Below, in pieces: positions 1,061 through 56,501 of a stretch of 64,000 nucleotides of DNA (its first letter is position 1; every line of letters begins with the position of its first letter). Both the position numbers and the translations under genes were made by a program. Below the pieces are notes generated by a model. It saw nothing but the letters and a program-made list of their open reading frames with translations, did not search any database and was not told where the DNA came from. Source of the DNA: a virus; IMG/VR virus record IMGVR_UViG_3300026097_000980, positions 32,001 through 96,000 of that record. The stretch is one strand, 5' to 3'.

Positions 1061-1747
1061 TCAAACATTTTCTTTGTAGAACATGGTTAATAATTGTTTA
1101 ACGATATCCGATCTTACAACATCGTCTAGTGTAAATCTCACAATAGGACATGAAATTCCGTGTTTAACACACATGTCAACAAATCTTGTTAGTGCCATAC
1201 CGTTTTTTACATCTGATTGATTTGGATCTCCCATAAGAACCAGTTTTGCGTTTTCTCCTATGCGTGTAGTAAGTGCTTTTAATTCTTCTAAATCTAAGTT
1301 TTGAGCTTCGTCGACTAAAATAATAGAGTTTTCAAAACTGTTTCCTCGTATTGTTTCAAGAGGTTGAATAACAATTCTTCTTTGTCGCAAATCACATTCA
1401 AATCTACCCTTACCCATTGCTTCTTCAAGAACAGAAGTTATTGGTTTGAGCCACGGTTCTAGCTTTTCTTCAACTGTTCCTGGAAAATATCCAAGTGACT
1501 TACCAGTAGAAATATTAGGACGAGTGATAATAATTTTGCTATATTGTCCTTTTAGGTACAGTTGCGCAGTTTTCATTCCTGAACAAAAAGTTTTACCTGT
1601 GCCAGCCGGCCCGATACACACAGTCATTACACTGTGTTCAATACTATCCAGCAGATATTGTTGCGTAGAATTTTTAGGTTGTATATGAAATGCCGCACTG
1701 CTGTTTAGTTCAATAGCGAATGACTCTTTTTTATTTTTTCTAGACAT
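1061..1747 (-). CDS. phoH: PhoH-like ATPase
   Basis: GPAGTGKT Walker A, LGYFPG, RGNSF, DEAQN, GDPNQSD, VVRS motifs. Confidence 0.95.
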   Translation of the reverse strand: MSRKNKKESFAIELNSSAAFHIQPKNSTQQYLLDSIEHSVMTVCIGPAGTGKTFCSGMKTAQLYLKGQYSKIIITRPNISTGKSLGYFPGTVEEKLEPWLKPITSVLEEAMGKGRFECDLRQRRIVIQPLETIRGNSFENSIILVDEAQNLDLEELKALTTRIGENAKLVLMGDPNQSDVKNGMALTRFVDMCVKHGISCPIVRFTLDDVVRSDIVKQLLTMFYKENV

Positions 1748-53324: not shown

Positions 53325-53626
53325 TAACTTTTCTTTCTTTTAGGCTTGTTGTTAGCAATCAAGTCGTGTCCTGAAATGTCAGCACTCATACCTGTTTCAC
53401 CTTGCGCGATCTTTTTCAATCTATACTTGTCAAGGGTTCGATCACTTTCAATGAGCGTCCTCACAGCCGCAAGTTCAAGATCACGTTCTTCGTTGCCTGC
53501 TCGGGTCTGCTGGCTAAGCACAATTTCATACATTCTGTATTTGTCTGGTGTGCTTAGACTCTTCAGCATTTCCCTTGCTTCTTTGTCATAATTGCGATCG
53601 TTAGTCGTTCCGAATCTCTGCATCAT
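53324..53626 (-). CDS. Hypothetical protein
   Basis: Operonic overlap. Confidence 0.6.
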   Translation of the reverse strand: MMQRFGTTNDRNYDKEAREMLKSLSTPDKYRMYEIVLSQQTRAGNEERDLELAAVRTLIESDRTLDKYRLKKIAQGETGMSADISGHDLIANNKPKRKKS

Positions 53627-53822
53627 CCGCCTCCACAGCAGGTTGAGGTGCGTTATATACCACGCCCAGTTTGATTTTTCGTGCTAATGCTTTTGCATAG
53701 CGATCTCGCTTCTTTCCTGATGCTGACTCTAGTTTTGCTGTTAACTGCTTGAGAGTCAGTGGACCTAATCGTTCTTTTCCGCTTCTGGTCATCAGTGGTG
53801 TTCTTTTTCCTGTTTTCTGCAT
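53601..53822 (-). CDS. Small basic protein
   Basis: GAGG SD. Confidence 0.65.
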   Translation of the reverse strand: MQKTGKRTPLMTRSGKERLGPLTLKQLTAKLESASGKKRDRYAKALARKIKLGVVYNAPQPAVEADDAEIRND

Positions 53823-53836
53823 TTTTACCTCTTTTG

Positions 53837-54490
53837 TTAAAATTCAATCCATGTAGCCATTAAGTATTTGACATTGCTTCTGGGCGGATTACCCCTATGC
53901 GTATGTGTATAGTTTCCTGGATAAATTAGAAGAGTTCCTTCTACCGCAGTTTCGGCTTTGTTATGATATAAAAACTCTGTCTCTCCACCATCTTTTACTG
54001 TGTTAAGGTATAGGGTAACATTCATAAACCTATTACACTCTGCTCTACCCGATTGCTCCCAGTGCCATACATGAAATCCTCCGCCGATATCTGTTCTTTG
54101 AATTTGTACTTCGTTAATGTGTTGCGGGTGGAACTGTCTAGTATCTACTAAACTATACCGGTCTGCATACTGATTATAGCATTCCCACACTGTTTCGATG
54201 AACGTTTTCTGTATGGCTGGAACTCCGACTACACCCATTGTATGTACCGAGTTACTGATCAGATCAGATGTATAAAATAGTTGATTATCTTTAATGTGTT
54301 TCGGAACTTTGTCATTTTGTTGCCGAGATTTTCCAAATCCCATTTTATCCATTTGTTCGAAATATTGAATTGCGCTTCTGCAGTAACTAGGACTGAACGC
54401 TCCTTCAAATCTACCGATAAAATTATCAATTTCAACTTTACAATTTTGCAACAGTATCTCCTTACAGCTTCGAATCAATGAACTTCGCAC
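53837..54490 (-). CDS. 2OG-Fe(II) oxygenase (prolyl-hydroxylase-like)
   Basis: GGFHVWHWE, YLNTVKDGGETEF, THTHRGNPP, KY; TTGACA-N17-TACTAT upstream. Confidence 0.9.
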   Translation of the reverse strand: MRSSLIRSCKEILLQNCKVEIDNFIGRFEGAFSPSYCRSAIQYFEQMDKMGFGKSRQQNDKVPKHIKDNQLFYTSDLISNSVHTMGVVGVPAIQKTFIETVWECYNQYADRYSLVDTRQFHPQHINEVQIQRTDIGGGFHVWHWEQSGRAECNRFMNVTLYLNTVKDGGETEFLYHNKAETAVEGTLLIYPGNYTHTHRGNPPRSNVKYLMATWIEF

Positions 54491-54532
54491 TAATTAATAG
54501 TAACAAAAGAATATGCCCTTGTCAACCTAAAA

Positions 54533-54608
54533 TGGAGTGAGGGACGAGATTCGAACTCGCGTAAAACAGATTTGCAGTCTGGTGCCTAACCAATTCAGCC
54601 ACCCTCAC
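54533..54608 (-). tRNA. tRNA-Cys(GCA)
   Basis: Cloverleaf, CT-GCA-AA, U73, CCA. Confidence 0.93.
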
Positions 54609-54612
54609 AAAG

Positions 54613-54688
54613 TGGAGCGGATAGGGAGAATCGAACTCCACTCTCTACGGCTTGGAAGGCCGAGGACACAACCCGTGTGCTTACCCGC
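54613..54688 (-). tRNA. tRNA-Gly(TCC), atypical D arm
   Basis: CT-TCC-AA, U73, CCA; A at position 8 and a short D loop. Confidence 0.88.
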
Positions 54689-54739
54689 ATTGTAAAAAAC
54701 CCTTGGCAGAGTCTATGACATCACCCAAAGGCCGTGTTA

Positions 54740-54815
54740 TGGTGCAACCTCCAGGGATCGAACCTGGTTCTTCGGAACTTCAACCCGACGTGAGGACCAC
54801 CTTCACCAAAGTTGC
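54740..54815 (-). tRNA. tRNA-Phe(GAA)
   Basis: TCGGG-TTGAAGT-TCCGA, ACCA. Confidence 0.9.
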
Positions 54816-54819
54816 AATA

Positions 54820-54903
54820 TGGTGGAGAGTGTTGGATTCGAACCAACGCGATGTTACTGCCAGATTTACAGTCTAGTGCTTTCGACCACTCAGCCAACTC
54901 TCC
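54820..54903 (-). tRNA. tRNA-Tyr(GTA)
   Basis: CT-GTA-AA, extended variable region, ACCA. Confidence 0.93.
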
Positions 54904-54909
54904 TCTTAA

Positions 54910-54983
54910 TGGCACCGGATGAAGGAATCGAACCTCCAGTAAGAGATTTGGAGTCTCCTGTGTTTCCATTACACCAATCCGGC
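54910..54983 (-). tRNA. tRNA-Trp(CCA)
   Basis: CT-CCA-AA, G73, CCA. Confidence 0.93.
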
Positions 54984-54989
54984 TTTATA

Positions 54990-55065
54990 TGGTCAGGATA
55001 GATGGATTCGAACCACCGTCTCCGCGCCCCAAACGCGGTGCTAAACCAACCTCAGCTATACCCTG
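54990..55065 (-). tRNA. tRNA-Pro(TGG)
   Basis: CCGCG-TTTGGGG-CGCGG, C1-G72, ACCA. Confidence 0.94.
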
Positions 55066-55070
55066 TAAAA

Positions 55071-55145
55071 TGGCTCCCGGTGTTGGAATCGAACCAACCA
55101 ATGACGGATTAACAGTCCGCTCCCCCACCTTGGGGGCAACCGGGA
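55071..55145 (-). tRNA. tRNA-Asn(GTT)
   Basis: CT-GTT-AA, U1-A72, G73, CCA; atypical D arm. Confidence 0.9.
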
Positions 55146-55152
55146 ATAAAAA

Positions 55153-55228
55153 TTAGCACGGTAGGACTCGAACCTACACCACCCAAACAAAAACTGCCAG
55201 GCGTTCTACCAGTTAAACTAAATGCCAA
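55153..55228 (-). pseudogene. Degenerate tRNA / tRNA-like RNA
   Basis: Good D arm (GTTT-AACTGGTA-GAAC) and T arm (GTAGG-TTCGAGT-CCTAC); irregular GU-rich anticodon arm, no CCA. Confidence 0.7.
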
Positions 55229-55240
55229 TAAACTTATTAG

Positions 55241-55302
55241 AAAACACTTGCTGGCTGGACTCGAACCCACTGTAGACCTCAAAATACTACAACAAGTGCT
55301 TT
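55241..55302 (-). ncRNA. Mini tRNA-like three-way junction lacking an anticodon arm
   Basis: 11-bp closing stem, UGUAG/CUACA hairpin, GUUCGAGU T-loop hairpin. Confidence 0.55.
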
Positions 55303-55412
55303 ATAATAAGTGCCAGGCTGTCCCTGACTTGACCTATCTCATTACATCCAGGCCGCCGCCCATTTATTTTTTAAAGTGCTTGTCGGATCGCGTTTCCTTT
55401 GCACTATACATT

Positions 55413-55442
55413 AAAAAACCCCGGAGTATTTCTACTTCGGGG
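55413..55442 (-). terminator. Attenuator terminator upstream of the tRNA array
   Basis: CCCCGAAGUA-GAAA-UACUCCGGGG-UUUUUU. Confidence 0.88.
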
Positions 55443-55487
55443 TCCAGTATAATCTTGTTGTGCTACTCTAGACTATACTGAACCTCC
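55439..55487 (-). promoter_or_regulatory. Antiterminator hairpin overlapping the leader stop codon and the terminator 5' arm
   Basis: GGUUCAGUAUAGUCU (55484-55470) pairs at 15/15 positions (2 GU) with AGAUUAUACUGGACC (55455-55441). Confidence 0.8.
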
Positions 55488-55577
55488 ATGACGATCATTA
55501 TACCAGCCACAGAACGATCCTGCCACCGTTGGCTGGTTCTTGGGCTTGATAATCATGTACATCGTTTTGTTCATCAT
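55473..55577 (-). CDS. 34-aa leader peptide MMNKTMYMIIKPKNQPTVAGSFCGWYNDRHGGSV
   Basis: ATG 6 nt after the -10 box (leaderless); stop codon lies inside the antiterminator arm. Confidence 0.7.
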   Translation of the reverse strand: MMNKTMYMIIKPKNQPTVAGSFCGWYNDRHGGSV

Positions 55578-55583
55578 AGTCTT

Positions 55584-55612
55584 ATATTACGACACTTGCT
55601 CTACTGTGTCAA
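55584..55612 (-). promoter_or_regulatory. Sigma70-type promoter of the leader/tRNA operon
   Basis: TTGACA-N17-TAATAT. Confidence 0.85.
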
Positions 55613-55635
55613 CCTCTTTTTACAAATTTATTTAT

Positions 55636-55908
55636 CTATTCTTCGTCCCATGCGTCCATATATCGAACAAACATGTTTTTACCAATTTCATACAGTCCTA
55701 CACCTGTAGCATAATCGCATCCGCTAACATGCAACACCGCCGATCCGTTGGCATCTAAACTACAGGCAACAAATTCAGTCATTTCTCGATTTTCAACTCG
55801 TCGTCTCATTTCATCAAGAGCTTCCAACAAGTCAGCTTGTCGTTCCTCCCAGAATTGTTCTTCTTGATCCTGTTTTTTATCTTTATCGTTAATGCTTACA
55901 ACTTTCAT
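55636..55908 (-). CDS. Hypothetical protein
   Basis: AGGA SD, 90 aa. Confidence 0.7.
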   Translation of the reverse strand: MKVVSINDKDKKQDQEEQFWEERQADLLEALDEMRRRVENREMTEFVACSLDANGSAVLHVSGCDYATGVGLYEIGKNMFVRYMDAWDEE

Positions 55909-55911
55909 ATT

Positions 55912-56118
55912 TTATCCTAATATTTTTCCTAATAAACCCGCGGCGGTCATAAAACCGTTCGTTGCAATCAACGGCTTGTCTTTCATTACAACAGCCGCTA
56001 CTAACCAAAACACACCACCGGTGATCTGTATATACCAACCGTATTCGATTCCAGCTGAAAACAATCCAAATCCTAAAATTAACAAGCTGGTTGCAAACCA
56101 TTTGTAGGTTTCGAGCAT
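55912..56118 (-). CDS. Small multi-TM membrane protein
   Basis: KWFAT...W...KDKPLIATN, three hydrophobic segments. Confidence 0.65.
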   Translation of the reverse strand: MLETYKWFATSLLILGFGLFSAGIEYGWYIQITGGVFWLVAAVVMKDKPLIATNGFMTAAGLLGKILG

Positions 56119-56119
56119 A

Positions 56120-56305
56120 TTAATTTTTACCTTTATCATTTTTTCCAGTAAAATTAAAAGGATCTACATGATCCATAATCATGTTGTTTAATGCTTTGAC
56201 ATAGGCATTGTATGTGACTTGCATAAACTCAGTTTGTTTATCCCCCGGAACAAACATTTCTTTTGCTTCTTCCGGAGTCATATCTATTTCGATTTTAATT
56301 TTCAT
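56120..56305 (-). CDS. Small protein (DUF6489-like N-terminus)
   Basis: MKIKIEIDMTPEEA. Confidence 0.6.
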   Translation of the reverse strand: MKIKIEIDMTPEEAKEMFVPGDKQTEFMQVTYNAYVKALNNMIMDHVDPFNFTGKNDKGKN

Positions 56306-56501
56306 TATTAAACCCTAGTTTGGTGTATTCTTCATCTGTGAAACACGCTTCGCAGGTAATATAACCTTCGTTCCAAGCTCTCATAATAGTTAGAGCAAGA
56401 TCTCCTGGTGTATTAGGATTAATGACGAGAGCGCAACGTTCAACCGAATCGTTTCCTTCTTTGACCTTGTAAAACGGACTGTCTTCTGTGATAGTTTTCA
56501 T
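56295..56501 (-). CDS. Hypothetical protein
   Basis: Operonic overlaps. Confidence 0.55.
   Translation of the reverse strand: MKTITEDSPFYKVKEGNDSVERCALVINPNTPGDLALTIMRAWNEGYITCEACFTDEEYTKLGFNNEN

Follow-up and report, generated by a model that had tools for sequence, protein, structure and literature searches.

The leader locus in front of a phage tRNA array

The element described here is a putative transcriptional leader of a phage tRNA array. It lies on a stretch of 64,000 nucleotides (nt), the window, which corresponds to bases 32001–96000 of the 155.5-kb IMG/VR viral record IMGVR_UViG_3300026097_000980. The CheckV completeness of the record is 42%, indicating a phage of roughly 350 kb (GC 40%), and the genes around the locus are carried on the minus strand. 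ARAGORN detected 12 tRNA plus transfer-messenger RNA (tmRNA) genes in the record, six of them in an array at 55145–54533. An earlier reading of the bare sequence, made by a model (the sequence-only reading), had proposed that a ribosome-coupled attenuator controls this array, consisting of a promoter, a 34-codon open reading frame (ORF), a hairpin that contains the stop codon and a terminator. All of these features, and the array itself, were found where that reading had placed them:

55584–55612, minus strand: promoter P1, TTGACA and TAATAT with a 17-nt spacer; 10/12 consensus matches, the best in the region
55473–55577, minus strand: leader ORF, 34 codons plus a TAG stop, beginning ATGATG, 18 amino-acid types
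55439–55487, minus strand: candidate antiterminator hairpin, arms 55484–55470 and 55455–55441, 15 base pairs (bp) including two G-U pairs
55413–55442, minus strand: intrinsic terminator, 9-bp stem with one A-C mismatch, GAAA loop and six T, about -16 kcal/mol
54740–55145, minus strand: tRNA-Asn-GTT, tRNA-Pro-TGG, tRNA-Trp-CCA, tRNA-Tyr-GTA and tRNA-Phe-GAA (ARAGORN and Rfam)
54533–54693, minus strand: tRNA-Gly(TCC)-like gene and tRNA-Cys-GCA (Cys called by ARAGORN and Rfam)

The ATGATG starts six bases past the –10 hexamer of P1, where the usual transcription start (+1) coincides with the A of the first ATG (55577). The stop codon (55475–55473) lies inside the 5′ arm of the hairpin, the G-run of this arm is made of Gly codons, and the 3′ arm ends in the CCCC of the terminator. 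Two further G-C pairs can be added beyond a bulged A, and GG-A-GG then pairs all four C of the terminator arm. Six tRNAs of the array (Asn, Pro, Trp, Tyr, Phe and Cys) were called by both ARAGORN and Rfam. The Gly-TCC gene at about 54693–54609 scored below the Rfam threshold and shares 81% identity with tRNA-Gly genes annotated in T5-like phages. A single tRNA-Leu and a tRNA-Ser gene lie 5.7 kb and 9.4 kb further down from the array, outside the operon as had been claimed, and a Met-Arg-Leu tRNA cluster is located elsewhere in the record; no attenuator-type leader was found at any of these other tRNA genes (tRNA-Ser, tRNA-Leu, Met-Arg-Leu cluster).

The layout recurs in divergent lineages

Relatives of the leader (loci are given L-numbers) were collected by four routes. 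The 90-residue product of the upstream gene led to the metagenome contigs L117 and L118 (79% and 73% identity), which carry the same leader. The exact terminator 24-mer was present in seven IMG/VR loci, each adjoining tRNA genes, and yielded three more types (L121/L124, L119/L120/L122/L123 and L125). Patterns that contained neither the ORF body nor the hairpin (promoter plus ATGATGA; a conserved post-terminator hairpin) yielded L129, L140/L142 and L141/L144; the remaining promoter-pattern matches were ordinary genes and were used as controls. A phmmer search with the 34-residue peptide, which returned one true homologue (P0004), led to L153. The other 42 phmmer matches were rejected as homologues: they are large proteins whose scores were summed over 4–9 repeats, and three that were checked in Pfam are Listeria-Bacteroides repeat proteins, whose repeat probably has a short Gly/Phe/Trp/Tyr/Asp motif in common with the peptide. 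DNA searches of cultured phages, both near and distant, gave matches at the tRNA level only, with no leader relative. Loci reached through the flanking 2OG oxygenase and metallophosphatase (about 50–58% identity, L003–L085) had no tRNAs at that place, and L116, which shares the 3′ half of tRNA-Trp, was discarded as an unrelated phage without the leader.

The window together with L117, L118, L121 and L153 makes up the window type. The layout was found in L117, L118, L153, L121/L124, L119/L120/L122/L123, L125, L129, L140/L142 and L141/L144; these nine further loci include six lineages beyond that of the window, with unrelated sequences, giving at least seven divergent lineages in all. Every relative has its leader immediately upstream of a tRNA array, and several have tRNAs just upstream of the leader as well. 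The conserved layout upstream of related arrays that the sequence-only reading had proposed to look for is therefore present, and in sequences that differ between types: hairpins and peptides are mostly unalignable from one type to another. The common order is a sigma-70-like promoter with a 16–17 nt spacer, ATGATG near the expected start, an ORF of 22–41 codons, a G-run formed by Gly codons and lying one to five codons ahead of the stop, a stop codon within or adjoining the 5′ arm of a helix, and a 3′ arm ending in the C-run that opens an intrinsic terminator. In every relative this C-run lies 28–36 nt after the stop.

P1 itself is kept in L117, L118, L121 and L153, and equivalents with 16–17 nt spacers stand ahead of ATGATG in L119/L120, L129, L140 and L141. 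L125 is the only leader type without a P1-like promoter, because a tRNA gene abuts its leader, and also the only one in which a Shine-Dalgarno sequence (GAAGGA) precedes the ATG, at a distance of 8 nt. The leader ORF is open in all relatives (10 loci). All three indels within it are multiples of three (two of 3 nt in the window type, and one codon in L119 relative to L120), and the indel just past the stop codon in the window-type alignment is 2 nt. The ORF is thus conserved in the sense that had been asked of it, and its frame suggests that it may be translated.

Outside the window, at record positions ~145375–145700, a TTGACA-17-TACTAT promoter is followed six bases later by the ATG of an ORF of ~80 codons, with another promoter and then the Met-Arg-Leu tRNA cluster further on. 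Leaderless initiation may be widespread in this phage.

Within the leader ORF of the window, an internal promoter candidate (GTGGCA-18-TATAAT with TG, 55526–55497, minus strand) was considered and rejected, as it is kept only in L117 and lost in L118, L121 and L153. The extended –10 site TG-n-TATAAT is built from Trp-Tyr-Asn codons, and Tyr, Asn and His codons are permuted in L118, L121 and L153.

Conservation and folding of the leader RNA

In the window type, almost no nucleotide differences occur in the 3′ half of the ORF, the hairpin or the terminator, and synonymous drift is absent, whereas the neighbouring protein is only 73–79% identical; this difference points to constraint on the RNA. 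Covariation was examined in five hairpin sequences. Paired bases occupied 98.8% of the cells, with three compensatory changes and three one-sided changes that preserve pairing. When the partner arm was slid, 28–48% were paired, and 3 of 500 shuffles were as good as the real alignment. One of the compensatory changes converts the last sense codon from GTA to GCG, so that the structure of the hairpin is preserved at the expense of the peptide. Covariation, which had been suggested as a check, is therefore detected, and on these alignments selection acts on the hairpin as RNA.

None of 200 shuffled sequences folds as well as the 173-nt leader (z = -4.1). In the equilibrium ensemble of the window, the terminator C-G pairs have a probability of 0.37 in free RNA, which rises to 1.0 once a ribosome occupies the stop codon. 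With a ribosome at the stop the terminator probability was 1.0 in all lineages. In the nascent RNA the C-run is paired upstream in every leader type; its sequestration exceeds that of all 150 shuffles in L125, L129, L140 and L141, with p = 0.03 in L120 and 0.09 in L121. The full-length minimum-energy fold contains the antiterminator in L125, L129 and L140 and the terminator in L117, L121, L119/L120 and L141, and that of L118 is intermediate, with only part of the terminator stem kept. A protector (1:2) helix, pairing the 5′ arm of the antiterminator with upstream sequence, was not seen in any of the predicted folds; untranslated RNA is therefore predicted to favour read-through.

A second terminator-bearing site was noticed outside the window, at record positions ~110050–110180 (L002 ~1500–1620, minus strand), with a terminator 81% identical to that of the leader. 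It is preceded by an 18-codon ORF with four successive Leu codons (CTA CTA CTA TTA), a CCCGGGG at the site is able to pair with the terminator arm there, and 3′ of the terminator lies a 15-codon ORF with a Shine-Dalgarno site that resembles the small ORF after the L125 terminator. The site was considered as a Leu-sensing paralogue and rejected: it follows a peroxiredoxin-like gene, has no adjoining tRNAs, and only its terminator is kept in five related records.

Amino-acid content of the leader ORFs and their arrays

The leader ORFs are short and, in most lineages, use nearly all amino acids. All 20 types occur in three ORFs that cannot be aligned with each other, L120 (40 codons), L129 (41 codons) and L141 (36 codons). 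L117, L121 and L153 have 19 types, with only Leu missing, the window and L118 have 18, and L125 has 16 in only 22 codons. Combining the least favourable member of each of seven lineages by Fisher's method gave p = 3e-5 for this diversity, a value to be read as an upper bound on significance, as the lineages are partly homologous and the combined p overstates their independence. Taken alone, the window is modest (p = 0.05–0.11 for at least 18 types, relative to random 34-residue peptides of the phage's own composition, which also served for its array coverage below). The amino-acid types of each array that are represented in the ORF preceding it were counted as follows:

Window: 7/7, p = 0.04
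L117: 16/16
L121 type: 17/17, p = 0.0025
L120 type: 19/19
L125 (Cys, Phe, His, Arg, Trp, Tyr): 6/6, p = 0.004
L140 type: 14/16
Pooled: 78/80, p = 9e-5 (2×2 test), with the window entered as 6/6, its uncalled tRNA-Gly left out

The expectation that ORF codons track array content was therefore borne out in the pooled counts. Missing amino acids follow the arrays in part. The L140-type ORF has no Glu, His, Tyr, Arg or Val, and the Glu, His and Tyr tRNAs of this type are found only upstream of its leader. Similarly, window-type ORFs have no Leu, and the tRNA-Leu gene is not part of the array: in L121 it precedes the leader, and in the window it is located 5.7 kb downstream. The tracking is imperfect: the L125 and window ORFs contain many amino acids that have no downstream tRNA, and the L119 ORF lacks Ala though a tRNA-Ala gene is located downstream. 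When the variable columns of window-type ORFs were randomised, the preservation of composition gave a weak signal (p = 0.05–0.3 per sequence).

Two finer claims of the sequence-only reading concerned the window ORF itself. The absence of Leu and AGY codons was correct for this ORF, which also lacks Glu, but exclusion of AGY is not a rule, for the L121 and L120 ORFs use AGT or AGC. The proposal that codons 14–27 are tailored to the seven tRNAs of the window array did not hold, as nearly the same ORF stands ahead of at least 18 tRNAs in L117. The match to seven tRNAs is therefore inherited and not tuned, and by this comparison the window array is a reduced array behind an inherited leader.

Structured RNA and promoters behind the terminator

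Between the terminator and the array lie 185 nt of conserved structured RNA, and a further hairpin interrupts the array:

55375–55405, minus strand: nested hairpin AGTGC...AACGCG...GCACT just past the terminator, followed by an A-rich tract and GGGCGGC
55241–55302, minus strand: tRNA-like remnant with a T-arm and no anticodon arm
55233–55234, minus strand: junction lacking ~310 nt that L117, L118 and L121 carry
55153–55228, minus strand: degenerate tRNA-Lys(UUU)-like gene with a weakened acceptor stem (Rfam, 37 bits)
54694–54733, minus strand: terminator-like hairpin and T-run (-14.6 kcal/mol) between tRNA-Phe and the tRNA-Gly-like gene, five bases before the latter

The nested hairpin recurs in five lineages (L117, L118, L121, L140, L119, L120 and L141), with a compensatory change from GGA/TCC to GGT/ACC in its inner stem, and has no Rfam match. 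The remnant is the same in L118; at its place, L117 and L121 have a different tRNA-like sequence and L153 has a short hairpin. ARAGORN called the Lys-like gene only if an insertion was allowed, and its homologues heading the L117 and L118 arrays were called as tRNA-Lys. The ~310-nt segment (L117 ~1108–1430; L118 ~1113–1420; L121) contains a TTGACA...TATACT promoter and a structured RNA with a closing stem of ~22 bp, without a match in Rfam. L153 also lacks it, with the same junction, and the difference may be an insertion or a deletion. The terminator-like hairpin may separate Gly and Cys transcriptionally from the first five tRNAs. No promoter-like site with at least 9/12 matches was found between the terminator and the tRNAs in the window or in L153, which leaves read-through as the only evident route to the array there.

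The record also carries a further translation-rescue function outside the window, a permuted tmRNA gene (tag ANDETFALAA, ARAGORN) at record positions 112017–112419.

A proposed attenuator and its alternatives

We consider it fairly probable that the element is a ribosome-mediated leader-peptide attenuator, which would control how far transcription from P1 reads through to the tRNA array; translation of the ORF, the switching itself and its physiological trigger we infer from the anatomy, conservation, covariation and composition described above. RNA polymerase would start at the A of ATGATG, giving a leaderless transcript onto whose 5′ end a ribosome would load. Moving at full speed, the ribosome would reach the Gly-codon G-run and the stop codon before the polymerase finishes the terminator, and would cover or melt the 5′ arm of the hairpin. 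The CCCC would then be free, the terminator would fold and the transcript would end at 55413. If decoding of any codon type is slow, or if translation does not take place, the hairpin and the G-run would hold the CCCC as the 3′ arm of the terminator emerges, termination would be weakened, and transcription would continue through the structured RNAs into the tRNA genes. Since nearly every amino acid is represented in the ORF by about one codon, the time that a ribosome needs to cross it would add up the decoding rates of almost all tRNA species, and the leader would act as a stopwatch and not as a sensor of a single amino acid. The additional tRNA that read-through yields would make decoding faster again, providing negative feedback. 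The link to host anticodon nucleases drawn by the sequence-only reading is purely conjectural.

Several observations weigh against this reading. The efficiency of leaderless translation in the host is a weak point. The pairing geometry by which the antiterminator was said to take the CCCC of the terminator stands, but only the CCCC is contested in the window: the mutually exclusive part is 2–4 G-C pairs, the 13-bp core of the hairpin does not overlap the terminator, one near-optimal fold holds the core hairpin and the full terminator together, and sequestration of the C-run is not above that of shuffles (p = 0.2). At equilibrium the terminator probability of the free RNA is 0.7–0.9 in the close relatives of the window and 1.0 in L119/L120, and any switch there must therefore be kinetic. 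A promoter downstream of the terminator as the main source of array transcripts had been named as speaking against attenuation. Such a promoter is absent from the window and L153 but present, with a consensus sequence, in six of the eight leader types (L117, L118, L121, L119/L120, L141 and L129), directly after the terminator or ~190 nt later. Arrays of these six types need no read-through, and their leaders could at most add to a basal level. As for composition, the L140 ORF has an ordinary diversity (15 types in 36 codons), the partial homology of the lineages discounts the combined p as stated, and the ORFs have no runs of a single codon, each amino acid being met by about one. Whether single codons suffice, and whether the 2–4 bp competition of the window is kinetically competent, are the points at which the proposal would most easily give way.

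These observations bear on three other explanations. The element could be a stand-alone short unit, in which P1 drives a small leaderless gene or small RNA with its own terminator that insulates the tRNAs, the arrays being transcribed from their own promoters. The consensus promoters after the terminator in 6/8 leader types fit such a unit, as do the overall shape of a small gene (promoter, ~165 nt, strong terminator), the success of the terminator at equilibrium in several lineages, and the leaderless start behind the same type of promoter at 145.4 kb of the record. We nevertheless regard it as unlikely, for the layout is conserved between lineages whose peptides show no conservation at the protein level, the nucleotides in the 3′ half of the ORF are invariant, with no synonymous changes, and a structure-preserving change alters the last residue. 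A stop codon within a helix that pairs with the terminator arm recurs in different sequences. The amino-acid diversity and the coverage of the arrays would be left unexplained, and neither the window nor L153 offers an array promoter.

That the hairpin is instead an element for RNA processing, stability or protein binding (such as an RNase III site where the tRNA precursor begins), combined with a leaky terminator and a frame that senses nothing, appears more doubtful still. The tRNA precursors of large phages are heavily processed, the 13-bp core is conserved and covaries on its own, independently of the terminator, and further conserved hairpins follow past the terminator. This explanation does not account for the frame-preserving indels, the ATGATG at +1, the Shine-Dalgarno sequence of L125, the fixed 28–36 nt between stop and C-run, or the amino-acid composition. 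Factor-dependent processive antitermination is known from lambda, in which PR′, the 6S RNA and tR′ likewise comprise a strong promoter, a short terminated transcript and a long unit; a phage protein would here load at P1 or on the leader RNA and let the polymerase pass the terminator at a fixed time in infection. It would work also where the terminator wins thermodynamically. Among the nine neighbouring proteins, however, Pfam shows no antiterminator family, only a metallophosphatase, a 2OG oxygenase and weak matches to domains of unknown function, and the conserved ORF, the stop codon in the helix and the composition would have no role; we hold this explanation to be very improbable.

The attenuator reading is, on the comparative evidence, well supported for the class of leaders and partly supported for the window. 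A broader form of it, which we put forward tentatively and rate as slightly short of probable, is that a family of giant phages uses a leaderless ORF of all amino acids as a stopwatch, in which shortage or cleavage of any tRNA species represented there would delay the ribosome, hold the antiterminator on the terminator, raise transcription of the array and so restore decoding, and the content of the ORF would co-evolve with that of the array.

Comparison with known systems

The reasons why phages carry and use tRNA genes have been debated for decades. Ideas discussed at present include codon compensation and escape from host defences that cleave tRNAs, and the regulation of the arrays is hardly addressed there (PMC10264068, PMC11464382, PMC13056530). 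A search of the full-text literature, whose coverage is incomplete and which is no proof of absence, found no description of attenuation of tRNA genes or phage tRNA arrays. Rfam leader families had no match at E ≤ 1 in the window region 53500–56500; the best leader score was that of His_leader, 26.5 bits against a cut-off of 49, in L118 only.

Other systems resemble parts of the layout. In lambda PR′-tR′ (6S RNA) with Q, a constitutive promoter gives a terminated transcript of ~165–190 nt ahead of a long downstream unit, but control is by the Q protein and a qut site, with no translated leader; the neighbouring proteins here include no antiterminator family, as noted. In the phage phiCbK (JX100813), the annotation places terminators directly ahead of the tRNA blocks, and the Pro-Lys-Leu-Ser block comes after a 45-codon ORF in which Ser, Leu, Pro and Lys are abundant. 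Its sequence is unrelated; in the present phage there is one leaderless leader with a doubled ATG and nearly all amino acids, ahead of one large array.

T-box riboswitches likewise make read-through of a terminator, ahead of genes with roles in translation, depend on the state of the tRNA pool. They bind uncharged tRNA directly and require neither ribosome nor ORF, and the T-box family (RF00230) had no match in the window, L117 or L118. The pyrBI and ermC/cat leaders share with the proposed mechanism that output is set by the position of a ribosome relative to the polymerase or a leader helix, and that any block of translation induces. They differ in that pyrBI depends on UTP-dependent pausing of the polymerase, whereas ermC/cat leaders need a specific nascent peptide and a drug, many of them acting on translation; neither kind controls tRNA genes.

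The closest likeness is to the enterobacterial trpL, hisL, leuL, pheL and thrL leaders. There a short ORF in the leader is translated, an intrinsic terminator precedes the genes under control, and a second helix, which cannot form together with the terminator, is masked once a ribosome arrives at the end of the ORF; slow decoding leads to read-through. In contrast to these, the regulated genes here would be phage tRNAs, the mRNA would be leaderless, and runs of regulatory codons are replaced by about one codon per amino acid. The absence of a 1:2 protector helix would give read-through, and not super-attenuation, if the leader is untranslated, and the overlap in the window is 2–4 bp. Multivalent attenuators such as ilvGMEDA (Ile, Val, Leu) and thr (Thr, Ile) also respond to several amino acids in one leader, but to two or three with several codons each, compared with 18–20 types sampled once or twice here. 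If the proposal is correct, phage tRNA output is predicted to rise when the host depletes tRNAs, and the leader, which is self-contained within ~200 nt and uses host-type signals, could serve as a compact sensor of translation stress. It would be the first attenuation control of tRNA genes, and would widen the trp paradigm from a single amino acid to the decoding apparatus as a whole.

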